A stretch of 64,000 nucleotides of DNA from a candidate division CPR2 bacterium GW2011_GWC2_39_10 (GTDB lineage: Bacteria; Patescibacteriota; CPR2): NCBI GenBank assembly GCA_000993275.1, contig LBVV01000009.1, positions 2,897 to 66,896 of the forward strand, given 5' to 3'. Under the pieces are notes generated by a model. It was not told where the DNA came from, did not search any database, and saw only the letters and a list, made by a program, of their open reading frames with translations. The position numbers were made by a program, and so were the translations under genes. The first letter of the stretch is position 1; every line of letters begins with the position of its first letter. This document shows, piece after piece, positions 2-51,714 of the stretch.

Positions 2-1441
2 CTTTTAGAAAAAGCCATTGAAGCAGATGATGCTTTGCTTGAAAAATATCTTGGCGGTGAAAAAATTACCACCGAAGAATTTAAATCGGCAATTCGAAAA
101 TCGGTTCTTAACGGTGATTTTTACTTAGTATTGGGCGGCGATGGAAGAGGCGTTATCGTTCAAACTCTGCTTAATGCGGTTAATGATTATTTGCCAAACC
201 CGCTTGATGTTCCGCCGGTAAAGGGTACGCATCCAAAAACCGGAGAAGAAATAGAAAGAAAAGCCTCCGACTCCGAACCTTTCTCGGCACTTGCCTTTAA
301 GATTGCCGCAGATCCTTTTGTCGGCAAACTTGCTTTCTTTAGAATTTATTCGGGAATCTTAAAATCCGGCTCATATGTTTTAAACTCCTCAACCGGACAA
401 AAGGAAAGAATCGGCCGAATACTTCGAATGCATGCAAATCACAGGGAAGACGTTCCCCAAGTTTATGCCGGAGAAATTGCAGCGGCCGTAGGTCTTAAAA
501 AAACTACAACCGGCGATACACTCTGCGATATTGACAAACCGATAATTTTAGAAAAAATTATTTTTCCGGAACCGGTTATTTCAGTTGCAATTGAGCCGAA
601 AACCAAAGCCGATCAGGAAAAAATGGGCATCGCATTATCCAGACTTGCTGAAGAAGACCCAACCTTTAGAGTAAAAACTGATGAAGAAGTTGCTCAGACT
701 ATTATTGAAGGTATGGGCGAACTTCATTTGGAAATTATCGTTGATCGAATGAAAAGGGAATTTAAGGTTGAAGCTAATGTTGGTAAACCCCAGGTTGCTT
801 ACAAAGAAACCATCCGAAAATCAACCAAAATTGAAGGTAAGTTTATTAGACAATCCGGCGGACGCGGTCAGTACGGTCATTGTTGGTTAGAGTTAGAGCC
901 GAATGAATCCGGAAAAGGTTTTGAGTTTATAAATAAAATCGTTGGCGGCGCCATTCCCAGGGAATATATTAATCCAATCGAACAGGGCGTTAAGGAAGCA
1001 ACAACTAATGGCGTTGTTGCCGGATATCCGGTAGTAGATGTTAAAGTTACCCTGTATGACGGCTCTTATCATGAGGTTGACTCGTCCGAAATGGCCTTTA
1101 AAATTGCCGGTTCCATGGCCCTGCAGGCTGGCGTCAAACAAGCCGATCCGGTCATTTTAGAACCAATTATGAGGGTGGAAGTTACCACCCCTGAAGATTT
1201 TATGGGCGACATTATGGGCGATTTAAATTCCAAAAGGGGACGAATTCAGAAAATGGACGAAAGAGCCGGCGTCAAAATTGTTGATGCTCTTGTTCCGCTT
1301 GCCGAAATGTTTGGTTATACAACCACATTAAGATCAATGTCGCAAGGACGTGCTGCATCTACAATGGAATTTGATCATTACGCTGAGGTTCCAAGAAACA
1401 TAATGGAAGAAATAATCGGAAAAAGAACAACAGCAAAGTAA
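2..1441 (+). CDS. fusA: Elongation factor G, C-terminal ~480 aa (5' end outside window)
   Basis: Frame open from window edge; translation shows EF-G domains II-V ([31 protein letters not shown]); hairpin+T-run terminator follows. Confidence 0.9.
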
Positions 1442-1466
1442 TAAACAATAAGCAAGAAACAATAAA

Positions 1467-1497
1467 CAAAAAAGCCTCGAAAGGGGCTTTTTTGTTT
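1467..1497 (+). terminator. Rho-independent terminator after fusA
   Basis: aaaaagcctcgaaaggggcttttttg: GC stem plus T-run. Confidence 0.5.
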
Positions 1498-1722
1498 CTT
1501 TCGTCATTGCGAAGGAGCGAAGCGACTGCGGCAATCTCATGGGAACACGATTAATGTCTCAGCCAAAGGTTGATCCGCCCTGGAGCGAGACAGGTCTTGG
1601 GCGGAAAATGCCAAATTACAAATAAGAAATATCAAAAAAGTATTAAGAATTGGAATATAGAATTTAGAATATGGTTTTTCTGCTTTATGCCATATTCTTT
1701 ATTCTCGCAAGTATTTGTCATG

Positions 1723-1819
1723 TAACTGCTCACAATCGTCATTGCGAACGATCCGGCAGCCGCCGGAGAGTGCGGCAATCTTGTTTCAAGCAGAGGAGAT
1801 TGCTTCGTTTCACTCGCAT
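1723..1819. repeat. 97-bp dispersed repeat copy 1 (starts with TIR-like gtaactgctcacaatc)
   Basis: 96/97 identical to 6206-6302; a related partial motif sits at 1501-1538 (tcgtcattgcgaagga...tgcggcaatctc). Confidence 0.75.
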
Positions 1820-2132
1820 TTGTCATTTTCAGCGCTTTTTTGTTCAAAATTCCAAAAAATTGTCTTCATGGGAAGTATTTAAACTATCTAATCTAACCTA
1901 CATTGATCTATTAAAGTTTATTATTATGAAAATGTAATTTTTGAAGCTATAAATTTAGTACCTTAACAGTGCTTGATCATTGTGGTCTAAAACCTGCAGG
2001 TTTAGCGGGGCCAAGCTTTAGGAACTCGAGAAGAGTTCCTAAAGACAGCTCATTACATAAAAAAAGGGGGGCAAAAGAAGTCACTACAAAAGGAGCCATA
2101 GCTGGCTTCTTTTGTTATTTCTAACAAAATAC

Positions 2133-2161
2133 TTGCAAAAAAAGAAAAAAGTAGGTATAAT
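2133..2161 (+). promoter_or_regulatory. sigma70-like promoter upstream of tuf
   Basis: TTGCAA-17nt-TATAAT, ~95 nt upstream of tuf ATG. Confidence 0.45.
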
Positions 2162-2256
2162 TTTTAAAGTTAGTGGAAGAGTAAAGTCGTCCACGATTTA
2201 ATTTGTAGACCAACACTAAACTTAAACAAAACCTATAAAAAGAAAGAAAGGAAAAT

Positions 2257-3438
2257 ATGGCAGAAAAATTTCAAAGAAATAAAACCCATGTCAATGTTGG
2301 TACAATTGGTCACGTTGACCATGGAAAAACCACACTTACTGCTGCTATTACCCACGTACTTGCTAAAAAGGGTCTAGCTAAAGCAGAGAAATACGAAGAT
2401 ATCGATAATGCCCCCGAAGAAAAAGAAAGAGGCATTACTATCGCAACTCATCACTCTGAATATGAATCAGAGAAAAGACATTATGCTCACGTGGATTGTC
2501 CGGGTCATGCCGACTATGTTAAAAACATGATTACCGGTGCAGCCCAAATGGACGGTGCTATTTTAGTTGTATCTGCGGCTGACGGGCCAATGCCTCAGAC
2601 CAGAGAGCATATTCTTTTAGCTCACCAAGTTGGTGTTCCACATATGGTTGTTTACATGAACAAAACCGATATGGTTGACGATCCAGAATTAATTGACTTG
2701 GTAGAAATGGAAATTAGAGAGCTTCTATCCAAATACGAATTTCCCGGTGATGACACCCCAATTATTAAAGGATCAGCCCTAAAGGCACTAGAGGGCGATA
2801 AAGACGCCGAACAGTCAATTCTGGACTTAATAGATGCCGTAGACTCTTTTATACCGGATCCAAAACGAGAAATCGACAAACCTTTCTTAATGGCAGTTGA
2901 AGATGTTTTCTCAATTAAAGGACGAGGTACAGTTGCTACCGGAAGAATTGAAAGGGGCAAAGTTAAGGTTAATGAAGAAGTTGAAATAGTAGGTATTCAC
3001 CCAACCAGAAAAACAGTTGTAACCGGCGTTGAAATGTTTAGAAAACTTTTAGACGAAGGTTTCGCCGGCGATAACGTTGGACTACTACTTCGAGGCGTTG
3101 AAAAAGACGACATCGAAAGAGGCCAGGTTGTTATCAAGCCGGGCTCTATTACTCCTCATACAGAATTTGACAGTGAAATATATATTCTAACCAAGGATGA
3201 AGGCGGACGACATACCCCTTTCTTCAAGGGTTACAAACCTCAGTTTTATATTAGAACAACTGACGTTACCGGTGAAGTTACTTTACCTTCAGGTGTAGAA
3301 ATGGTTATGCCTGGCGATACGGTTAAATTAGGAATTAAGTTAATTGCTCCAATTGCAATGGAAGATGGAATGAGATTTGCAATCCGCGAAGGTGGTCGAA
3401 CCGTAGGCGCCGGAGTAGTAACTAAGATCATAAAATAA
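2257..3438 (+). CDS. tuf: Elongation factor Tu
   Basis: [18 protein letters not shown] and NKTD GTPase motifs; 393 aa. Confidence 0.97.
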
Positions 3439-3463
3439 GGTAAGTTTTTAAGGAGTAGGAACT

Positions 3464-3799
3464 TTGACAGCACAAGCAAAAACCCCAGAAAAGACGAAGC
3501 AAAGGATAAGAATCAGGCTAAAAGCTTATGACCATAAGATTATTGATGAGTCATGTAAGCAAATTATTGAAACTGCGGCAAGAACAGGCGCTTTGGTTGC
3601 CGGACCGGTACCGCTTCCAACTCAACGGAATGTGATTACGGTTATCAGATCTCCGCATATCGATAAAAATTCCCGGGAACAGTTCGAGATGAAAACCCAT
3701 AAAAGGCTGATTGACATCCTTGATCCCGCTCCAAAAACAATAGATTCCCTAATGAATCTAAACTTACCGGCCGGTGTAGATATCGAAATTAAGATGTAG
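3464..3799 (+). CDS. rpsJ: 30S ribosomal protein S10
   Basis: [16 protein letters not shown] motif; TTG start; followed by terminator. Confidence 0.9.
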
Positions 3800-3825
3800 A
3801 TAAATTAAGATGTAGATAACAAAAA

Positions 3826-3855
3826 AGAGTCAGGCAGTTGCCAGACTCTTTTTTA
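3826..3855 (+). terminator. Rho-independent terminator after rpsJ
   Basis: agagtc-aggcagttgcc-gactct stem followed by tttttt. Confidence 0.55.
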
Positions 3856-3995
3856 ATGTCAAATGTCAAATTACAAAATATTTAGTTATTGGCATTAATT
3901 AATATCATTTGGTGGTTATTTTTTTTGTTTTAATCAAACGATTGCGATTTTGCTTTTTGCTTTATATACTTATGATATAAATAAAAGAGGGTGAA

Positions 3996-6068
3996 ATGTT
4001 TTCTAAAATAAAATCCGGTTTTAAGTCGCATAAAAAATTAGTTGTTATTCTATTTTCGTCTTTTTTAATTTTAGGGCTATCGGGCGGAATTTATTATTTT
4101 GACTATTTTAGAGATTCCATAAGTCCGAACATAATATCTAAAAAAAAACCTACTCCTACTCCAAAACTTGAACCATTAAAAGTATCGGATAACAATCTTA
4201 AAAAGTTTTCTTCCTGCAGCACCTTAACTAGCGTTTTTGAAAACAGAAAAAAAGAGCAGCAAAACAGACTTATGGAATTTGCTGCAACGGCACCCGCAGA
4301 TCCTCCGGGCAAGGGCGGCGGAGGCGGCGAATATTCTGAAACCAATGTTCAGGTTGAGGGTGTAGATGAGGGAGATATCGTTAAAACTGATGGTGATTAT
4401 ATTTACACTATTGTTAAAGAGAAGGCCATTAAAATTGTTAAGGCCTTGCCTGCTAACAATATTTCGCTGTCTTCAACTATTAATTTCCCCGACAATTATG
4501 CCGTAAAAGAGTTATTTTTAGATGGAAATAAGTTGGTTGCTCTTGGAAATTCAGCAATCAAAGCCCGGGGCATTACAAATGTGCCGGAATGGTATTCGGA
4601 TTATAATTTTAATGAGGTTTACACTTTTATTAAAATTTGGGATATTACTGATCGGAATAATCCTAATCTGGTTCGTGACCTGCAGTATCAGGGTAATTAT
4701 TCGACTTCCAGAAAAATTAGCAGCTCGGTTTATGTGGTTGTAAATACTGCTCCGGATTTTGAAATTATTAATAAAGACGCTAAGGCTGACCAATATATTC
4801 CCAAAATATCCACGTCTGTTGGATCTTCTCAGTATAAGCCGGCTTGCGAATGTCAGGACGTGCATTATCTCACTTCCTTAAATTCAAAAAAGGAAACCAC
4901 CGAGGCAGAAGATATTAGGAATTTAAAAGATAGCAATTTTGTTTCGGTGATTACTATTAAGGCTCAAGATGTAAGCGCAGATCCGGACAAAAAAGTGATT
5001 GTTGCAAGTACCGATAAGGCTTATGCCTCAGCTAAAAATCTTTATTTAGCAGAGCCGCAATATCCGGAATTAACGACAAATGGGACAGTTTCGAATTTAA
5101 TTCCGGATAGCAATAATACGGCTATTCATAAATTTGCCCTTTCGGCAGAAAGAACCGATTATTTATCAAGCACTATAGTTCCGGGCGAAGTCTTAAACAA
5201 ATACTCGATGGACGAATATAACGATCATCTTAGAATTGCAACCACCAAGGGCAATGTGTGGAACCAAACCACAAAATCAACAAACAATTTGTATGTTTTA
5301 GATAAAAACTTTAAATTAGTGGGCAAAATAGAAGGCTTGGCCGAAGGGGAACATATCTATTCGGCAAGATTTGTGGGAGAAAGAGGCTATCTGGTTACAT
5401 TTAAAAAAGTAGATCCTTTTTTCACCCTGGACCTTAAAGATCCGGCCAGTCCCAAAGTGGTCGGTCAATTAAAGATTCCGGGTTATAGCGATTATCTACA
5501 TCCGATAGACGAAAACCATATTATAGGCATCGGAAAAAACACCATTGAAGCACAGCAGGAGTTAGAAAGCGAGCGAAGGGTTGATTTTGCCTGGTATCAA
5601 GGAATAAAAATGGCAATATTTGATGTGACCGATTTTGCAAATCCAAAGGAAATGCATAAGGTTACCATAGGCGATAGGGGAACGGATTCTTACGCCTTAC
5701 ATGACCCCAAAGCTTTTCTTTACGATAAAAAGAAAAATTTATTAGTCATTCCAATTTTGCTTGCCGAAATGTCCGAGACTCAGAAAAAGCAAGCGGAAGA
5801 TTGGGAATACGGCGCCAATACTTATCAGGGATCTTATGTTTATAATGTAACCCTAGATGCGGGTTTCGAACTTAGGGGCAGGGTCACTCATTATTCGGAA
5901 AATCATTTTAAGGATATCGAAAATAACATGTCATATTATTATTACGGCGACGATAAATCTATAGCCAGATCTTTATATATTGGTGATAATCTTTATACCG
6001 TCTCCAATGGTAAAATTATGGTTAATAATCTATCCAATTTATCCAAACTAAAAGAACTAAGTCTATAG
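3996..6068 (+). CDS. Secreted/membrane-anchored beta-propeller domain protein (COG4880 / PF09826-like)
   Basis: N-terminal TM/signal; C-terminal region with DPFFTLDLKDPASPKVVGQLKIPGYSDYLHP, typical of the secreted beta-propeller family; inserted between rpsJ and rplC. Confidence 0.5.
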   Translation: MFSKIKSGFKSHKKLVVILFSSFLILGLSGGIYYFDYFRDSISPNIISKKKPTPTPKLEPLKVSDNNLKKFSSCSTLTSVFENRKKEQQNRLMEFAATAPADPPGKGGGGGEYSETNVQVEGVDEGDIVKTDGDYIYTIVKEKAIKIVKALPANNISLSSTINFPDNYAVKELFLDGNKLVALGNSAIKARGITNVPEWYSDYNFNEVYTFIKIWDITDRNNPNLVRDLQYQGNYSTSRKISSSVYVVVNTAPDFEIINKDAKADQYIPKISTSVGSSQYKPACECQDVHYLTSLNSKKETTEAEDIRNLKDSNFVSVITIKAQDVSADPDKKVIVASTDKAYASAKNLYLAEPQYPELTTNGTVSNLIPDSNNTAIHKFALSAERTDYLSSTIVPGEVLNKYSMDEYNDHLRIATTKGNVWNQTTKSTNNLYVLDKNFKLVGKIEGLAEGEHIYSARFVGERGYLVTFKKVDPFFTLDLKDPASPKVVGQLKIPGYSDYLHPIDENHIIGIGKNTIEAQQELESERRVDFAWYQGIKMAIFDVTDFANPKEMHKVTIGDRGTDSYALHDPKAFLYDKKKNLLVIPILLAEMSETQKKQAEDWEYGANTYQGSYVYNVTLDAGFELRGRVTHYSENHFKDIENNMSYYYYGDDKSIARSLYIGDNLYTVSNGKIMVNNLSNLSKLKELSL

Positions 6069-6205
6069 TAAAAAAACCGCCCCATCATGGGATAGTCTCT
6101 CTCATTTGAGTCTCAATTGGATTACTAAAATCTCCATCTAAATGACTTAAGGCTGGCAGGAAATCGGAAAGACAACTAAAAAAATGAGTGTAACCCAGGC
6201 CCTTT

Positions 6206-6302
6206 GTAACTGCTCATAATCGTCATTGCGAACGATCCGGCAGCCGCCGGAGAGTGCGGCAATCTTGTTTCAAGCAGAGGAGATTGCTTCGTTTCACTCG
6301 CA
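6206..6302. repeat. 97-bp dispersed repeat copy 2
   Basis: 96/97 identical to 1723-1819. Confidence 0.75.
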
Positions 6303-6400
6303 AAAAACTGCTTAAAATGTGCTAAAATTTAAAATCAAACAAAAATGCAACTTTACAATTAAATGAAAAATGTCAGCACTGATTTAGGAGGGGAATTAAA

Positions 6401-6766
6401 ATGAAAAGGTTGAATGATTTTAGTATCTATGCGAAATTGATTATTTTCGGAATAATGATTGAAATTTTAAGTTTATTTCTGCCGATGGTTTTTATTAAAT
6501 TATTGCCCTACGTATTGCCCAACATAGTAACTGTGTCGGAAATCCCATTTCCAGTTTTAATGATTCTCAATCTTCGGCCAACATTAGGCCATTATGGATT
6601 TATTTGCATCATGGCTGGATTAGATTATTACTTTTGGCGCAATAATAGCCCTGATGAAGAAAATGGACATTTATATCTATCAAGGCTAGTCATTAAGCAT
6701 TCCCCCGCATTGTTAATGGTTATTTACTCGATAGACTATTTCATTTTTACACGTTTTATTAATTGA
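6401..6766 (+). CDS. Hypothetical small membrane protein
   Basis: RBS aggagggg 7 nt upstream of ATG; hydrophobic helices; no recognisable family. Confidence 0.35.
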   Translation: MKRLNDFSIYAKLIIFGIMIEILSLFLPMVFIKLLPYVLPNIVTVSEIPFPVLMILNLRPTLGHYGFICIMAGLDYYFWRNNSPDEENGHLYLSRLVIKHSPALLMVIYSIDYFIFTRFIN

Positions 6767-6819
6767 TGAATGTCGGCACATTTCGCACTGGCAAGATAAC
6801 TGTTTTGAGGAGGTCTATT

Positions 6820-7341
6820 ATGAAAACTACAAGCAGTGGAATTATCGTTGCGCGGCATGTAATCGAGACGATTAAATTGGCACCGATTAGGATAGATCAT
6901 GATCTTGAGTTTGCGAGAATAATAGAGGGCTTATACGGCCACGATTCTGGCATCAACTACACCAATATCCCTGATTGCAACGCAGGAAAAAATGGCATCG
7001 AGGAGGCAAGCCTTTTTCTTGTCAGGCCCGTTCCTTATTGGCAGGTGTGGTTAACAGACAGGGTTTTGTCATTGCTTGATGAAGCAGGATTTGTCCAAGA
7101 AGAGTTTCCTACCCTGTTTTCGCTCATGGGTCATGCCGAAGAACTTTGCAAAGCACGTATTGATAACATCTCGGCTCTTGGTGAGCACTCTCGTTGGAGG
7201 CATTCCAACGGCAATATCTTTGCTCCGTTTATGTCGCTATACGCTGCTAAATTCGGTTATCCTGCATTTTGCGAATTCGAAAGTAAATTTATCGGGAGCA
7301 AATGGTCGGAAGATAATTGGCTTGTTGTCCGCCACAAGTAG
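6820..7341 (+). CDS. Hypothetical protein, visibly higher GC than its surroundings
   Basis: ORF 6763-7341; best start is ATG 6820 after gaggagg RBS; no family recognised. Confidence 0.4.
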   Translation: MKTTSSGIIVARHVIETIKLAPIRIDHDLEFARIIEGLYGHDSGINYTNIPDCNAGKNGIEEASLFLVRPVPYWQVWLTDRVLSLLDEAGFVQEEFPTLFSLMGHAEELCKARIDNISALGEHSRWRHSNGNIFAPFMSLYAAKFGYPAFCEFESKFIGSKWSEDNWLVVRHK

Positions 7342-7396
7342 TTTTTAAGACATAGGAATTTGAATTATTAATTCTTTAATTCCTTCGGTCCCAAAC

Positions 7397-7433
7397 GGGC
7401 GATTTTGACTTTAAGTTGAGATCGCCTTTTTTT
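7397..7433 (+). terminator. Rho-independent terminator ending the insertion
   Basis: gggcgat...atcgcc stem plus ttttttt. Confidence 0.5.
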
Positions 7434-7496
7434 ATTGTTGTTTTTAACCCATAAACCCATTGACCAATTAACCCATCCCACCCGCTAATTTTCTTC

Positions 7497-7525
7497 TTGA
7501 CAAATTGAGCTTAAAACCTTATACT
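7497..7525 (+). promoter_or_regulatory. sigma70-like promoter for rplC and the rest of the S10 operon
   Basis: TTGACA-17nt-TATACT, ~120 nt upstream of rplC with a long leader. Confidence 0.45.
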
Positions 7526-7642
7526 TTTTAAGGTAATATTTTATAAAGAAATACTTACAGTATCAAGCGGGGAGTTGGAGCAGTCCGGCGAATGTCGGAA
7601 ACTTTCTAACTGTCCGAAATATTTGTTTGTCTAGGAAACAAA

Positions 7643-8269
7643 ATGAAAGCAGTTTTAGGTAAAAAAGTTGGAATGACCAGAATTTTCGCCGAAAACGGTA
7701 AAATTACACCCGTTACGGTTATTGAAGTTACTCCAAATACTGTCATCCAAATTAAAACCGCAGGCAAAGACGGATACAATGCAGTTCAAATTGGTTTCGG
7801 TAACGTAAAAAATATAAAAAAGCCTCAGGCCGGTCACTTAAAAAAGGCAAAAGTTGAAGCAAAATATTTAAAAGAAGTCCCCTCAATTGACATAGAAACT
7901 GCCGAAGGGCAGGAGCCTAAGGAGCTAAAAGTAGGGGATCAAATTTTAGTTGACATCTTTAACTCCGGCGATAAGGTTGAAGCTGTCGGTGTTTCCAAGG
8001 GCAAGGGCTTTGCCGGCACCATTAAAAGACACAACTTTAGTAGAGGCCCAAAATCGCACGGCTCTCATAATGTCAGAAAACCCGGTTCTATCGGAGCCAT
8101 GTTTCCGCAGCACGTTTTCAAGGGTCAGAAAATGCCTGGAAGAATGGGACATATTCAGGTTACCACCAAAAATTTAGAAATAGTTACAGTAGATAAAGAG
8201 AATAATTTATTAACAATTAAAGGCGCTGTGCCCGGACCGGCAAAAGGGCTAATAGTAATTAGAGGTTAA
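7643..8269 (+). CDS. rplC: 50S ribosomal protein L3
   Basis: MKAVLGKKVGMTRIF N-terminus. Confidence 0.95.
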   Translation: MKAVLGKKVGMTRIFAENGKITPVTVIEVTPNTVIQIKTAGKDGYNAVQIGFGNVKNIKKPQAGHLKKAKVEAKYLKEVPSIDIETAEGQEPKELKVGDQILVDIFNSGDKVEAVGVSKGKGFAGTIKRHNFSRGPKSHGSHNVRKPGSIGAMFPQHVFKGQKMPGRMGHIQVTTKNLEIVTVDKENNLLTIKGAVPGPAKGLIVIRG

Positions 8270-8270
8270 A

Positions 8271-8945
8271 ATGAAAGCTCCGGTTTACGACATTAAAACC
8301 GATAAAAAAGAAGACAAAACCTTAAAAGACAAAGTTTTCGGTTTGGAAATAAATAAGCCGCTTTTGTCTGAAGTTGCTATTTTAATGCAGTCAAACCTTA
8401 GAGTCGGTTCCGCTAAAACCAAAACCAAGGGTGAAATTTCCGGCGGCGGCAGAAAACCGTGGAAACAAAAAGGTACCGGCAGAGCAAGAACCGGATCTAT
8501 CCGAAATCCAATTTGGCGAGGCGGCGGCACAACTTTTGGGCCAACCGGCGAACAAAATTTTAAAAAGCTTATTCCAATTAAGAAAAGAAGAGCTGCTCTT
8601 TTAAATGCGCTATCTTTAAAAGCTAAAGAAAAGCAAATTATTATGATAAAAGAAGTTCTAGTTAAAGAACCAAAAACCAAAGTAATGACTGAGGTTTTAG
8701 CCAAGATTCCTGTTTCCGGCCGAATTTTAATGGTTTTACCGGAACATAATGAAGTTTTTTACAAATCCGGCCGAAATATTCCAAATCTAAAAATGGTTGT
8801 TTATAAAGAGTTAAATACTCTGGAAGTTCTGCGTGCCGACTACTTAGTTTTAGTTAACGGCGTAGAAGCAAAACTGGAAGAGCTTGCGGTAGCCGGTAAA
8901 CCGAAAGAGCTTGCATTGAGTAAACCTAAGGGAGCGGCAAAATAA
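8271..8945 (+). CDS. rplD: 50S ribosomal protein L4
   Basis: Position in S10 operon and L4-like sequence. Confidence 0.9.
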   Translation: MKAPVYDIKTDKKEDKTLKDKVFGLEINKPLLSEVAILMQSNLRVGSAKTKTKGEISGGGRKPWKQKGTGRARTGSIRNPIWRGGGTTFGPTGEQNFKKLIPIKKRRAALLNALSLKAKEKQIIMIKEVLVKEPKTKVMTEVLAKIPVSGRILMVLPEHNEVFYKSGRNIPNLKMVVYKELNTLEVLRADYLVLVNGVEAKLEELAVAGKPKELALSKPKGAAK

Positions 8946-12069: not shown

Positions 12070-12355
12070 ATTAAAAGGGACGGTAGTCTCCGATAAAATG
12101 GATAAAACAGCAGTCGTAAGAGTTGACAGTCTAAAAACTCATCCGATTTACAAAAAAAAGTTTAAGGTTTCCAAAAAATATAAAATTCATGATGAAGGGA
12201 ATGTCTTAAAGGTTGGTGATGTTGTGGAGTTTGTCGAAACCAGACCAATTTCTAAAGACAAATCATGGGCGCTTTCCAAAGTATTAGAACAGGCTTCTTC
12301 GACAAGCTCACCTCGTGGTGACTCGCCGGAACCAGAACAGGCCAAGGGAGAATAA
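12044..12355 (+). CDS. rpsQ: 30S ribosomal protein S17 with an unusual Ser/Pro/Glu-rich C-terminal tail
   Basis: [14 protein letters not shown] motif; likely start at M 12059. Confidence 0.9.
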
Positions 12356-25214: not shown

Positions 25215-25415
25215 GTCATTCCGGACATTCATTTAAAAAGTACAATCATTTGATCCGGAATCCATTCTTTTTTAAAGTACTTTCTTTTCCACTTTTGGCA
25301 GCAAAAGTGGAGCAAAACTGCCGACACGCTACAAAATCGGATTAGCACATAAGGCTCATTCACTCTCAAAAAGTCGAACTCGTCGTGCATCTCGATTTTT
25401 CCGCTACAGTCGGAC
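25215..25415. repeat. Composite repeat: family B hairpin (25215-25264) plus family C element (25289-25415)
   Basis: Near-identical to 31405-31593 apart from indels; conserved blocks ccacttttggcagcaaaagtgg, aaactgccgaca, ctcaaaaagtcgaactcgtcg, cgctacagtcgga. Confidence 0.7.
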
Positions 25416-31404: not shown

Positions 31405-31593
31405 GTCATTCCGGACTTGATCCGGAATCTATTATTTCTTTATTTCTATTTCCACTTTTGGCAGCAAAAGTGGAGCAAAACTGCCGACACGCTACAAAAT
31501 CGGATTAGCACATAAGGCTCATTCACTCTCAAAAAGTCGAACTCGTCATCTTCTCTTCGCCAAGTGCATCTCGATTTTTCCGCTACAGTCGGA
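31405..31593. repeat. Composite repeat: family B hairpin (31405-31429) plus family C element (31452-31593)
   Basis: Near-identical to 25215-25415, with an 18-bp insertion (atcttctcttcgccaagt). Confidence 0.7.
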
Positions 31594-32105: not shown

Positions 32106-32180
32106 GCCGATGTAGCTCAATGGCAGAGCAACTGTTTTGTAAACAGTAGGTTGTGGGTTCGAATCCCTCCATCGGCTCCA
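32106..32180 (+). tRNA. tRNA-Thr (anticodon UGU), CCA encoded
   Basis: Cloverleaf built by hand: acceptor gccgatg/catcggc, D stem gctc/gagc, anticodon stem actgt/acagt with loop tttgtaa, T-loop ttcgaat. Confidence 0.8.
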
Positions 32181-32265
32181 TAAAAGTTATCAGGAATCAG
32201 TAACCAGGAAACATTAATAGGGATAGAAGATTGTTTACTGATTACTGTTTCCTGATTCCTGACAC

Positions 32266-32351
32266 GGGCAGGTACCCAAGTGGCCAACGGGGGCAGACTG
32301 TAAATCTGCTGGCATTCGCCTTCGAAGGTTCGAATCCTTCCCTGCCCACCA
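32266..32351 (+). tRNA. tRNA-Tyr (anticodon GUA), long variable arm, CCA encoded
   Basis: Acceptor gggcagg/cctgccc; anticodon loop ctgtaaa; T stem gaagg/ccttc. Confidence 0.85.
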
Positions 32352-32444
32352 ATAACAATAAACAATTAACAAGGAACAAAAAACAAAAGCACAGTTTTAC
32401 GGATAAAATGTTTTTTGTTGATTGCACTTTGTTTTTTGGCTCGG

Positions 32445-32520
32445 GCCCAGATAGCTCAGTTGGCAGAGCGCATCCATGGTAAGGATGAGGTCACGGGTTC
32501 GAATCCCGTTCTGGGCTCCA
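32445..32520 (+). tRNA. tRNA-Thr (anticodon GGU), CCA encoded
   Basis: Acceptor gcccaga/tctgggc; anticodon stem catcc/ggatg with loop atggtaa; T stem acggg/cccgt. Confidence 0.8.
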
Positions 32521-32617
32521 GATAACTTGCTAAGTTTTCAAACAATGTTACCTCAATAATTTGCCCTAGTAACTTGCAAACTTACCAATTAATAAACTAG
32601 AATAAAAGGAGAAATAA

Positions 32618-32782
32618 ATGGCAAAGAAAGAAAATCGGCCGGTAATTGCACTTGCTTGCGGTGAATGTAAAAACAGGAACTATTCAACTACAAAAAATAA
32701 GAAGAATACGACTGACAGGATAGAATTAAGCAAATTTTGTCCTTTTTGCCGAAAAACCACAGCTCACAAAGAAACGAAATAA
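32618..32782 (+). CDS. rpmG: 50S ribosomal protein L33
   Basis: [54 protein letters not shown]; C4 zinc ribbon; RBS aaaggag. Confidence 0.85.
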
Positions 32783-32870
32783 AACTTTATATAGTTCGAT
32801 ATTTGACAAGTAAATGTTGATATTTTAGAATGGTTATGGGTGTAAATATAACTGTTGATTATTATTCAAA

Positions 32871-33533
32871 ATGAAAACTAATCTTAAATCAAAAGCCATA
32901 TCTTTGCGTAAGCAAGGCTTCTCTTTGAAAGAAATAAGTGAAGATTTAGGTATAGCAAAAAGTACGGCATCCTTGTGGTTAAGGGATACTGTTTTAAGCG
33001 CAAATGCTATAAAAAGGATTGAAAGTAGAATAACTAAAGGACAAATAAAAGCGGCTGAAATAAAGAGAGAAAAAACAAGAAAATTGTTAAATGAATTTCA
33101 AGCAAAAAGCGATGTGTTAGTTGGGCGAACTATATTAAATATTGATATGATAAAGATAATATGTTCATTGATTTATTGGTGTGAGGGGGGTAAATATAGC
33201 GATAATTTCGTACAATTTACCAATTCAGATCCCAGTCTTATGGGTACATTTCTGCAATTACTTAGGCAGGTATTTATGGTAGATGAAAAAAAATTTAGGG
33301 TTTGTATGCATCTTCATGACTATCATAATGAAAAAAAGCAAAGACAATTTTGGTCTATGGTAACAGAAGTTCCCGAGAGCCAGTTTATAAAGTCATACAA
33401 TAAGCCAAATACGGGAAAGAGAATTAGAAAAGGTTATCAAGGATGTGTGCAGTTGAGGTATTATGATGCGGTAGTATCGAGAGAATTATTAGCAATAGCT
33501 AAATCTTTCATGAATAAACTTGAAAACAAATAA
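32871..33533 (+). CDS. HTH-domain protein with a possible single-motif LAGLIDADG-like endonuclease core
   Basis: N-terminal HTH (LRKQGFSLKEISEDLGIAKSTASLWL); central LIYWCEGGKYSD resembles a LAGLIDADG (LAGxxDGDG) motif; stop is 1 nt before tRNA-Trp. Confidence 0.35.
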   Translation: MKTNLKSKAISLRKQGFSLKEISEDLGIAKSTASLWLRDTVLSANAIKRIESRITKGQIKAAEIKREKTRKLLNEFQAKSDVLVGRTILNIDMIKIICSLIYWCEGGKYSDNFVQFTNSDPSLMGTFLQLLRQVFMVDEKKFRVCMHLHDYHNEKKQRQFWSMVTEVPESQFIKSYNKPNTGKRIRKGYQGCVQLRYYDAVVSRELLAIAKSFMNKLENK

Positions 33534-33609
33534 AGGGGCGTTCGTTAATTGGATAAACGGCTACTCTCCAAAAGTAGTCCTGCCGGTTCGAGTCCGGCCG
33601 CCCCTGCCA
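33534..33609 (+). tRNA. tRNA-Trp (anticodon CCA), CCA encoded
   Basis: Acceptor aggggcg/cgcccct; anticodon loop ctccaaa; T stem gccgg/ccggc. Confidence 0.85.
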
Positions 33610-51511: not shown

Positions 51512-51714
51512 CTTCTCTTTCTACTTTTTGGCAGCAAAAAGATAGCAAAAACTGCCGACAAAGCTACAAAATTGGGTTAGGACTGAGTCTTGTTCACTCT
51601 CAAAAAGTCGAACTCGTCGTAACCTCCTCAAACACAACTTTTTGAGATGTTCCCTGCGACATCCGACCTCAGCTTCGCCGAAGGCGAGACGGGAGTCCAC
51701 CACAATTTTTACGC
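51512..51714. repeat. Family C repeat, diverged copy with an internal insertion
   Basis: Shares ctttttggcagcaaaaag hairpin, aaactgccgaca, ctcaaaaagtcgaactcgtcg and cgctacagtcgga with 25289-25415. Confidence 0.6.

Follow-up and report, generated by a model that had tools for sequence, protein, structure and literature searches.

The junction between rpsJ and rplC, the genes for ribosomal proteins S10 and L3, is probably the boundary of two transcription units in the CPR2 bacteria, in the sampled Saccharibacteria-type species and, apparently, in other Patescibacteria. The spacer between the two genes is likely to be a lineage-wide hotspot of gene turnover, with the genes described here representing one species' fill. 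The DNA analysed, referred to as the window, is a 64-kb stretch from the CPR2 (Patescibacteria) bacterium GW2011_GWC2_39_10 (GCA_000993275.1, contig LBVV01000009.1), and all of its features given below lie on the + strand. An earlier note on this DNA had read the locus as an operon split by an insertion, with 'insulation' and a 'new' promoter as the consequences. This reading is only partly right, and the split is not supported as its result, since the terminator, the promoter and a leader hairpin are found in all three CPR2 genomes; the operon is not broken by its cargo, because the gap is open and variable across the whole lineage. The anatomy of the locus, the conservation of its terminator, promoter and leader, and the variability of the spacer across 76 species are established observations.

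Only three CPR2 species are present in the collections searched (the window species and those of loci L010 and L011), and 73 Saccharibacteria-type species formed the outgroup sample, making 76 with the CPR2 trio. Loci were picked by S10 similarity, and the scope of the comparison is Saccharibacteria-type genomes and CPR2. All of the genomes compared are metagenome-assembled, with taxon labels as in the database records.

Organisation of the rpsJ–rplC region

The tuf gene (EF-Tu; 2257–3438), which has its own promoter-like site at 2133–2161, appears to start a unit that is closed by rpsJ (3464–3799; PF00338, 130 bits). The stop codon of tuf is followed after 25 nt by rpsJ, which has a TTG start and the ribosome-binding site AAGGAG. 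An exact 16-nt tandem duplication (AAATTAAGATGTAGAT twice, 3786–3817), missing from both CPR2 relatives L010 and L011, spans the rpsJ stop codon. Beyond it lies the intrinsic terminator of the tuf-rpsJ unit (3821–3854), with 16-nt arms that are 94% complementary, a following T run and a predicted fold of −22.8 kcal/mol (z = −6.4), so the strong terminator claimed after rpsJ is present. An internal mismatch and the 2-nt loop caused a pattern scanner to pass over it. A terminator directly follows rpsJ in 3/3 CPR2 genomes whatever the cargo, the stem sequence of the window being different, and rpsJ is followed by a terminator-like hairpin in only 31 of the 76 species.

The terminator is bordered by a conserved left flank, AATGTCAAATGTCAAATTA (3855–3873), common to the window and L010, where the match is 96% over 25 nt with no similarity further inward. 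Similarity between the CPR2 genomes breaks off sharply at 3873 and returns at 7485, thereby delimiting a species-specific variable segment of 3.6 kb (3874–7484) that resembles L010 and L011 only outside this span. The cargo ends in a second terminator-like hairpin (7397–7434, consisting of a hairpin at 7397–7427 plus a T run), which folds at −17.4 kcal/mol (z = −3.3). The promoter of the rplC operon, TTGACA-17-TATACT (7497–7525), matches the consensus at 11 of 12 positions and has the top score within 1300–8000. As promoter-like sites are overall no more numerous here than in shuffled sequences, the pattern alone is weak, but the call is supported by conservation in the relatives: TTCTTCTTGACAAATT...TATACTTTTTAAG, hexamers and flanking bases together, is invariant in 3/3 CPR2 genomes whatever the cargo. 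The second terminator and the TTGACA/TATACT promoter were thus correctly recognised in the earlier note, all of whose listed elements (rpsJ, rplC, a propeller gene, two small ORFs, a repeat, the terminators and the promoter) are present with small corrections.

Downstream, rplC (7643–8269; PF00297) heads the rplC-rplD-rplW-rplB... unit, at a distance from rpsJ of about 3.85 kb (3846 bp). Since terminator, promoter and leader are present with other cargo in the relatives, the tuf-rpsJ unit appears to end with rpsJ and rplC to open a separate one, and termination past rpsJ with re-initiation at 7497–7525 presumably takes place.

Variability of the spacer

The gap measures 3846, 1050 and 1935 bp in the three CPR2 species and its genes are mutually unrelated. 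L010 is a close relative of the window (tuf 99%, S10 97% and L3 92% identical) and has 0.8 kb of unrelated sequence in the variable segment, while L011 holds yet other genes. The three genes of the window occur at the junction in 0/2 CPR2 relatives and 0/73 Saccharibacteria-type species, in line with the claim that they are accessory, and no remnants of them were found in the L010 and L011 spacers at the DNA or protein level. Comparison with related genomes therefore gives a divided answer: the gene content is not ancestrally shared, but the operon break is shared by the relatives.

Across the 73 Saccharibacteria-type species the gap ranges from 137 to 4339 bp (median 1393) and contains at least one ORF of at least 60 aa in 65 of them. 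When the CPR2 trio is counted in, the 76 species have 180 gap ORFs, which form 112 clusters and encode, among others, NUDIX, HAD, adenosine deaminase and CHAP/LysM proteins; of the 173 in Saccharibacteria-type species, 134 are co-oriented with the flanking operons. As a control, the L3–L4 spacing has a median of 64 nt and a maximum of 193, and never exceeds 500. The tuf–rpsJ spacing of the Saccharibacteria-type species is itself variable (median 525 nt). The S10–L3 junction had been taken as conserved, whereas in this lineage rpsJ–rplC is the most variable of the three spacings measured.

Genes within the spacer of the window

The gap contains, in order, a PF09826 propeller ORF, a 98-nt repeat, a 121-aa ORF and a 173-aa ORF, bracketed by the terminator and the strong promoter. 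The propeller gene (3996–6068, 690 aa) has a promoter-like site at 3942–3970 and encodes a COG4880-type, putatively secreted beta-propeller, with residues 113–681 giving a near full-length match to PF09826 Beta_propel (profile positions 1–494 of 495) at 522.7 bits, above the gathering cut-off of 22.4. A hydrophobic stretch near the N-terminus, LVVILFSSFLILGLSGGIYYF (residues ~15–35), seen in the translation, is a candidate export signal or anchor. The composition of the gene is native-like (GC3 z −0.1, codon usage z +0.7), which allows long residence. Its best non-self match is 48% identical, the two homologues whose context was checked both have unrelated surroundings, and no relative with a solved structure was found.

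The 121-aa ORF (6401–6766) has the ribosome-binding site GGAGGGG and no Pfam match. Read by eye from its translation, this hydrophobic ORFan would be a multi-pass membrane protein. A word-indexed search of 5.8 billion proteins found only the protein itself, which is also unrelated to the Saccharibacteria c0 family. PADLOC and NCBIfam scans of the three cargo ORFs matched no known system, and no integrase, recombinase or transposase was found among them with Pfam, NCBIfam or PADLOC.

The 173-aa ORF (6820–7341; ATG at 6820, GAGGAGG at 6807–6813), identical to database protein P0121, is atypical in composition: as had been suspected, its GC is higher than that of the window (0.446 vs 0.378; GC3 z = +3.0), and its codon usage deviates as well (z = −2.4). 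The word-indexed search of the 5.8 billion proteins gave no relatives and a full HMMER scan gave 23 remote ones, of which P0123 (locus L117) is the closest member of the family (E 7e-32, 45% identity). P0123 serves a canonical diversity-generating retroelement (DGR) as its variable target protein. The 3' 130 nt of its gene match a copy further downstream (83% identity), and 21 of the 22 mismatches fall at template adenines; next to it lie a reverse transcriptase gene (RVT_1) and, on the minus strand, an ORF of 126 aa that is read as Avd-like. By homology, the 173-aa ORF would belong with the DGR variable proteins, some of which, TvpA (PDB 2y3c) for example, have a C-type-lectin-like fold. It differs from them in an 8-residue insertion in the variable-region equivalent, and in having no template repeat, reverse transcriptase or Avd-like protein within 64 kb. 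No second copy of 7050–7345 is present in the window, tblastn with the reverse transcriptase and the Avd-like ORF of L117 gave only chance matches (E above 0.6), and there is no YxDD-containing ORF of over 200 aa. Nor was population variation seen in the variable-region equivalent, where the two variants in the 90% cluster are the same, differing only outside the C-terminal region.

The repeat is represented twice in the window, in the 816-bp fusA-tuf spacer (1721–1818) and between the propeller gene and the 121-aa ORF (6205–6302), as 98-nt copies that are 99% identical. In assembly L001 the fusA-tuf copy is 122 nt long with 12-nt terminal inverted repeats (GTAACTGCTCAC/GTGAGCAGTTAC) and has the same 8-bp direct flank, TTTGTCAT, on both sides. 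These inverted repeats are perfect in L001 and in a further assembly, L002, whereas the window copies are without the 3' inverted repeat; the copy at 1721–1818 is 3'-truncated relative to the 122-nt form, and that at 6205–6302 lacks 39 nt held by L001 and L002, including the 3' inverted repeat and a target duplication, GGCCCTTT, which differs from TTTGTCAT. The second copy folds as DNA at −32.3 kcal/mol (z −6.5). The repeat appears to be a small transposable element, a MITE, which probably arrived later than the other cargo because it has its own target-site duplication. The repeat is real, but it lies between two of the genes, away from the edge of the segment. Since it is flanked by an 8-bp duplication of its own and is also present in the fusA-tuf spacer, this internal MITE gives no hint of how the segment arrived.

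The rplC leader RNA

The 5'-UTR of rplC contains a putative leader (7561–7631) with a hairpin at 7568–7616, an inner AGUCC...GGAAAC motif and a following T-rich tract. In CPR2, 7 pairs of the hairpin have compensatory changes among the three genomes, and the window structure has a z of −4.1. With the Saccharibacteria covariance model the window leader reaches only 20.7 bits, and its U tract is weak (TTTGTTTGT); it appears to be related to the rplC leader of Saccharibacteria but to have diverged from it. In an alignment of 64 leaders there are 16 pairs, 12 with double changes, and 91% of the cells are paired; the covariation score of 0.487 compares with 0.216 for shuffled alignments (0/500 reach 0.487) and with at most 0.113 when the partners are slid. 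In 1.3 Mb the covariance model matched 71 loci, 9 of them outside the seed, all on the + strand and directly 5' of rplC, with one weak off-target match. It found no match in metagenome loci with contiguous S10–L3 (41–142 nt).

Searches of Rfam with 6060–7700 of the window gave only a chance L20_leader match over the cargo terminator (E 0.88; E up to 1), and those with 10250–10560 of L038 gave nothing at E up to 5, which suggests that the covarying rplC leader is absent from Rfam. A conserved, covarying 5'-UTR structure, as expected of an autoregulatory ribosomal-protein leader, was thus found in the Saccharibacteria-type and the three CPR2 genomes. Attenuation is plausible, because the hairpin is followed by a U tract, and by analogy with E. 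coli the leader may respond to a ribosomal protein, namely L4.

Proposed mechanism and alternative explanations

Transcription of tuf-rpsJ would stop at the intrinsic terminator, and the rplC unit would be separately promoted, behind a structured leader whose hairpin and U tract resemble those of an attenuator. The stretch from terminator to promoter would be selectively permissive, while its flanks are among the most conserved genes of the genome, so that rapid turnover and different accessory genes in each species would be expected. The window's fill would then comprise a membrane-anchored PF09826 propeller surface protein, resident long enough to have acquired native codon usage, a membrane ORFan, an orphan, foreign in composition, that is homologous to DGR variable proteins, and a MITE that was inserted later. 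Cargo may be exchanged when DNA taken up by natural transformation recombines homologously with the conserved flanks. Saccharibacteria have been shown to be naturally competent and to recombine DNA through homology arms of about 1 kb, and rpsJ also serves in them as a stand-alone strong promoter (PMC10633639). Tentatively, the spacer could serve episymbiotic Patescibacteria lineage-wide as a landing pad, at which competent cells swap surface, host-interaction or nucleotide-salvage genes by homologous recombination, and an undescribed attenuator RNA on the ribosomal-protein operon could sense a ribosomal protein, most likely L4.

Several other explanations need to be weighed against the two-unit boundary. 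That a mobile island recently inserted as one block into an intact S10 operon, bringing its own terminator and promoter, is very unlikely and already largely refuted. The absence of the cargo from the close relative L010, the foreign composition of the 173-aa ORF, the repeat within the segment and the 16-nt duplication at the rpsJ end would all fit, but terminator, promoter and leader are already in relatives with other cargo, which hold different genes at the site, no empty one being found among them. Moreover, a single mobile block was rejected on the lack of an integrase or transposase, of an adjacent tRNA (the nearest is at 32106) and of att-type direct or inverted repeats pairing the two segment borders. 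With target duplications of its own, the repeat counts as an independent MITE, and the composition is mixed, with a native-like propeller gene and an atypical 173-aa ORF, which favours separate gene histories. An assembly chimera, in which unrelated contigs were fused at the repeat, is extremely unlikely. The NCBI assembly does break exactly there, contig L003 stopping within the second MITE copy with the propeller and the two small ORFs on different contigs, and the window copies are shorter than those of other assemblies. However, L001 (46 kb contig) and L002 (29 kb contig), which are independent of each other and come from different studies, both span rpsJ to rplC with the identical order rpsJ-propeller-121-173-rplC and 100% identical proteins; hence the join is no assembly artefact.

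It is also unlikely that the CPR2 ancestor had the three genes between rpsJ and rplC and that the two sampled relatives lost or replaced them. The native GC3 and codon usage of the propeller gene and the very sparse sampling of CPR2 are compatible with such a history, against which stand the lack of any remnant in the L010 and L011 spacers, the distance of the nearest propeller homologue (48% identity), the unrelated contexts of the two homologues checked, the outlying composition of the 173-aa ORF and the absence of the genes from all 73 outgroup species. Finally, the three genes could be a functional module placed beside highly expressed ribosomal genes, with read-through driving their expression and coupling it to growth rate. 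They do share the strand of the flanking operons, as do most gap ORFs of the Saccharibacteria-type species, and there is no clear + strand terminator after the propeller gene. This is nonetheless quite unlikely, given the strong rpsJ terminator, the propeller's own promoter-like site, the differing compositions, the lack of co-occurrence of the genes elsewhere and of any match to a known system.

The boundary between two units, if correct, changes how the window is read: the conserved operon is not broken, and the rule of the lineage would be a str-S10 super-operon cut into small units with permissive spacers. Patescibacteria genomes are about 1 Mb with few intergenic regions, and a site of recurrent turnover between universal genes would be a practical marker, as primers placed in the two flanking genes would make the variable cargo of any sample accessible to amplification. 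The same site may suit the new genetic tools for Saccharibacteria, as a candidate neutral or expression site, and is a place to seek strain-specific surface and host-interaction genes. With strong covariation and no Rfam family, the rplC leader would add a ribosomal-protein regulatory RNA to a phylum for which none is described in the libraries searched.

Comparison with known systems

The repeat resembles MITEs in its 122-nt length, 12-nt perfect inverted ends, differing 8-bp target-site duplications, strong hairpin potential and the assembly breaks at the element, and differs from typical ones in that no parent insertion sequence was identified within the 64 kb and related loci. The leader has a possible functional parallel in the E. 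coli S10 leader, an L4-mediated attenuator and likewise a structured 5' leader before an L4-encoding operon (PMC3616713). Unlike the E. coli leader, which is 5' of rpsJ, the rplC leader sits 5' of rplC, and it resembles no Rfam family in sequence or by covariance model.

Gene-flux or integration hotspots flanked by core genes are a general concept in bacterial pangenomics. The spacer shares with them its sharp borders in conserved flanks, the unrelated content in close relatives and the many families per site. It differs in being flanked by ribosomal-protein genes from the classical S10 cluster, in lacking an integrase, a tRNA and an att site, and in belonging to a lineage whose tiny genomes offer few other permissive sites.

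In cyanobacteria, plastids (rps12-rps7-tufA-rps10) and archaea, rps10 is linked to the str operon, and the large ribosomal-protein cluster has the L3 gene at its head. The arrangement in the window appears to follow the same plan, with rpsJ directly 3' of tuf (25 nt, with its own ribosome-binding site) closing one unit and rplC heading another. In contrast to those systems, the two units here stay neighbours, separated by a variable spacer of 0.14–4.3 kb that gathers accessory genes.

The rpsJ-rplC interval

Downstream of fusA (35-1441), tuf (2257-3438) and rpsJ (3464-3799), the window has an interval of 3846 bp before rplC is reached. All of the elements that the earlier note had listed in this interval are present. 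The 690-aa beta-propeller ORF gives a full-length match to PF09826 (522.7 bits), rpsJ is followed by a terminator hairpin at 3821-3854 (-22.8 kcal/mol, z -6.4), a second terminator hairpin is found at 7397-7427 (-17.4 kcal/mol, z -3.3), and the TTGACA-17-TATACT promoter at 7497-7525 agrees with the consensus at 11 of 12 positions, making it the top promoter match in the region. Both small hypothetical ORFs also stand, the start of the last one being corrected to the ATG at 6820, after GAGGAGG, to give a product of 173 aa. The higher GC reported for this last ORF is real (GC 0.446, GC3 z +3.0, codon-usage z -2.4).

An S10 protein identical to that of the window is found on contigs from PRJNA268031 and related samples. 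Since two independent assemblies of the same population (L001 and L002) both span the interval from rpsJ to rplC with the same gene order, an assembly artefact at the join is ruled out. A search for bracketing repeats around the segment found none. An exact 16-nt tandem duplication (AAATTAAGATGTAGAT, twice) at 3786-3817 takes in the rpsJ stop codon and has no counterpart in either CPR2 relative; slippage or an earlier rearrangement could have left it.

Control elements in the CPR2 relatives

Relatives were gathered by an S10-based scan with one genome per GTDB species, which returned two CPR2 genomes and 78 further loci, nearly all of them labelled Saccharibacteria or Saccharimonadia. A metagenome scan with L3 recovered these two relatives again and no further CPR2 species. 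The first of these, CG2_30_37_16 (L010), is very near to the window, with identities of 99% for tuf, 97% for S10 and 92% for L3, and has an rpsJ-rplC interval of 1050 bp containing a single unrelated 220-aa ORF. The second, GWC2_39_35 (L011; S10 92%, L3 69%), has an interval of 1935 bp with two ORFs, one for a membrane protein of 136 aa on the minus strand and one of 131 aa. The window's three cargo genes are absent from both, and no remnants of them were found in either spacer.

Similarity between the window and CG2_30_37_16 at the DNA level ends at 3873, after a common AATGTCAAATGTCAAATTA, and restarts at 7485. A terminator hairpin lies directly 3' of the rpsJ stop in all three CPR2 genomes, the promoter block TTCTTCTTGACAAATT...TATACTTTTTAAG is invariant in the three, and all have a hairpin in the 5'-UTR of rplC, in which 7 of the 27 predicted pairs are kept through two-sided changes. 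Because the terminator, promoter and leader are common to three genomes with different fills, they are older than the present cargo. The comparison of related junctions thus bears out the note in that gene content differs from that of the window, but the control elements were already in place in the relatives, and the idea that terminator and promoter arrived with the insertion has to be given up. Upstream of the rplC -35 box, an element at 7449-7496 (CATAAACCCATTGACCAATTAACCCATCCC) is partly kept in GWC2_39_35 at about 12070-12110 (CATAAGCCAATTAGCCTATTAGCCAATGGC) and could represent an UP element, or else a site where a regulator binds.

Variability of the junction across the lineage

The S10-L3 junction had been considered one of the best conserved in bacteria, which does not hold in this lineage. 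Among 73 Saccharibacteria-type species with the S10 and L3 genes on one contig, the spacing ranges from 137 to 4339 nt, with a median of 1393, and exceeds 500 nt in 63. The tuf-S10 spacing is also variable (2 to 4585, median 525, above 500 nt in 36/68), whereas the L3-L4 spacing, which served as a control, runs from 7 to 193 with a median of 64 and never exceeds 500 nt (0/72). At least one ORF of at least 60 aa is found in the gaps of 65 of the 73 species. When the CPR2 trio is included (76 species), the gap ORFs number 180 and form 112 similarity clusters, whose representatives include genuine genes for NUDIX and HAD hydrolases, an adenosine deaminase and a LysM-CHAP protein. The sole semi-conserved resident of the spacer, cluster c0, is a small membrane protein (about 95 aa) that has no Pfam match, recurs in 42 of the 73 gaps (L012-L089) and is often located 160-210 nt upstream of rplC.

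The metagenome scan with L3 also brought in more distant lineages, some with a contiguous S10-L3 arrangement (41-142 nt). One metagenome locus, L115 (6800-8000), has a 1.2-kb gap with a gene between rpsJ and rplC that is RelE-like by sequence inspection. In two others, L098 and L101, rpsJ is missing from the 8 kb around rplC and the order is gyrA-queA-pilin-rplC (3400-8600), with queA in minus orientation and the pilin gene type IV pilin-like, the ORFs being named by inspection only.

The rplC leader RNA

The leader lies at 7561-7631 in the window and directly upstream of rplC in the Saccharibacteria-type loci (for example 10407-10482 in L038). In the latter, a TTGACAG...TAATCT promoter comes first, then a long irregular hairpin, CUUGGU...AGGUCUACC...GGUAGAAACC...ACCAAG, and after it UUUUUAUG; the hairpin contains the motif AGGUCy...GAAACC and precedes a U tract. 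An alignment of 64 leaders has 16 predicted pairs, of which 12 show double changes, with 91% of cells paired. Its covariation score of 0.487 compares with 0.216 for shuffled alignments (0/500 reach the observed value) and no more than 0.113 for slid partners. A covariance model gives one match per locus in 71 loci, nine of them outside the seed, always directly upstream of rplC, with one weak off-target in 1.3 Mb and no match in the lineages with contiguous S10-L3. The window hairpin at 7568-7616 (inner AGUCC...GGAAAC) aligns to the model over its full length, at only 20.7 bits, and the CPR2 leader is a divergent form of the Saccharibacteria-type one.

The leader has no match in Rfam 15. At the gathering threshold, Rfam returned four tRNAs only for the whole window, and at an E-value threshold nothing relevant was found in 1400-2300, in 6060-7700 or in one Saccharibacteria leader. 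With its hairpin and U tract ahead of an operon that encodes L4, the arrangement recalls the S10 attenuator of E. coli (PMC3616713). By this analogy the rplC leader is a candidate ribosomal-protein attenuator with a putative ligand of that kind. No description of the rpsJ-rplC junction or of this leader in Patescibacteria was found in the literature, of which coverage is incomplete.

The cargo genes

None of the three cargo genes is recognised by PADLOC or NCBIfam, and the 121-aa and 173-aa ORFs have no match in Pfam either. The propeller protein is 100% identical to NCBI UT66_C0055G0004, and its gene is native-like in composition (GC3 z -0.1, codon-usage z +0.7). Its top non-self match has 48% identity, and the named relatives come mainly from DPANN archaea with a few from CPR and Actinobacteria; two homologues that were looked up sit in unrelated contexts, adjoining ABC transporters. 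No paralogue was found within the window and no solved structure related by sequence. Directly 3' of the propeller stop, at 6071-6092, AAAAAAACCGCCCCATCATGGGA is terminator-like on the minus strand only. Like the AAAAAAACCGCCCC after this stop, it is similar to the rpsJ terminator of the relatives over that terminator's 5' half. As the terminator and the conserved AATGTCAAATGTCAAATTA remain at the ancestral position, this sequence may be a coincidence or a decayed terminator. The 121-aa ORF (6401-6766) matches no family and has no relative among 5.8 billion proteins; its candidacy as a divergent c0 member was rejected (hhalign probability 0.6%).

The 173-aa ORF has no relative in a word-indexed search and 23 remote ones by full HMMER. 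An AlphaFold model built with the alignment of relatives is confident (pLDDT 89, pTM 0.82) and finds no match in the PDB with Foldseek. The nearest relative, P0123 (45% identity), sits in a textbook diversity-generating retroelement (DGR) on metagenome locus L117 (Logan ERR12076137), where positions 1-2510 form a complete small system. The last 130 nt of its gene (variable region, 477-606) are repeated 468 nt downstream (template repeat, 945-1074) with 83% identity, 21 of the 22 mismatches falling at adenines of the template. Beyond the repeat are a minus-strand 126-aa ORF (1078-1458), Avd-like by inspection, and a reverse transcriptase gene (1441-2433). Another relative consists of two tandem paralogues with a common diversified 155-nt 3' end. 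Since a search of the 64-kb window found neither a template repeat nor a reverse transcriptase or Avd-like protein, and the protein's two population variants differ only outside the C-terminal region, the 173-aa ORF is best regarded as an orphan homologue of DGR targets and not as part of a working DGR.

Repeats and the fusA-tuf spacer

The repeat at 6205-6302 is present, with 99% identity to a second copy at 1721-1818, but its proposed role as a marker of the segment's edge is not upheld. Other assemblies of the window's population (8233-8354 and 12742-12863 in L001) show a 122-nt element whose ends are perfect 12-nt inverted repeats, GTAACTGCTCAC/GTGAGCAGTTAC, and which folds into a long hairpin (z -6.5). 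Each copy has its own flanking 8-bp duplication, TTTGTCAT for the one between fusA and tuf and GGCCCTTT for the one in the island. The copies in the window and at NCBI are 3'-truncated, and it is at this element that the NCBI assembly breaks. The element is a MITE inserted twice in permissive spacers, and it marks no border of the segment. A different 99-nt repeat is found at 25286-25384, 31449-31547 and 51520-51618, two copies being 100% identical and the third 62%; two copies lie close to four clustered tRNA genes (32106-33604).

At 816 bp (1442-2256), the spacer between fusA and tuf is long as well. It holds a bidirectional terminator-like hairpin at 1464-1497, a second hairpin at 2086-2115 and a TTGCAA-17-TATAAT promoter at 2133-2161, so tuf also appears to be separately promoted. 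A short fragment at about 1500-1540 (tcgtcattgcgaaggagcgaagcgactgcggcaatctc) resembles the core of the repeat.

Proposed exchange of the spacer and comparison with known systems

Across the lineage, the segment between two conserved control elements is wholly different from one close relative to the next, and the cargo is the fill of one species in a variable spacer that is typical of the lineage. The observation in the note is confirmed and its interpretation partly supported. Transcription of rpsJ would end at the hairpin and rplC would be driven by its own promoter; insertions would then be tolerated in the spacer because it lies outside both the tuf-rpsJ and rplC units. Exchange may proceed by recombination in the conserved flanks following DNA uptake. 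In Saccharibacteria, natural competence and recombination with arms of about 1 kb have been demonstrated, and rpsJ is regarded there as a gene with a strong promoter of its own (PMC10633639). That the cargo is of mixed composition and has the MITE in its interior suggests that it was built up in steps and not by one insertion.

Hotspots flanked by core genes and tuf-linked rpsJ are both known kinds of arrangement, to which this locus adds the generality of the hotspot and an undescribed leader RNA. The break between rpsJ and rplC is not unprecedented, since in cyanobacteria, plastids and archaea, as in the window, the S10 gene is normally linked to tuf and L3 heads the large cluster. What is unusual here, compared with tuf-linked S10 elsewhere, is that the two units have remained neighbours while the spacer between them turns over.
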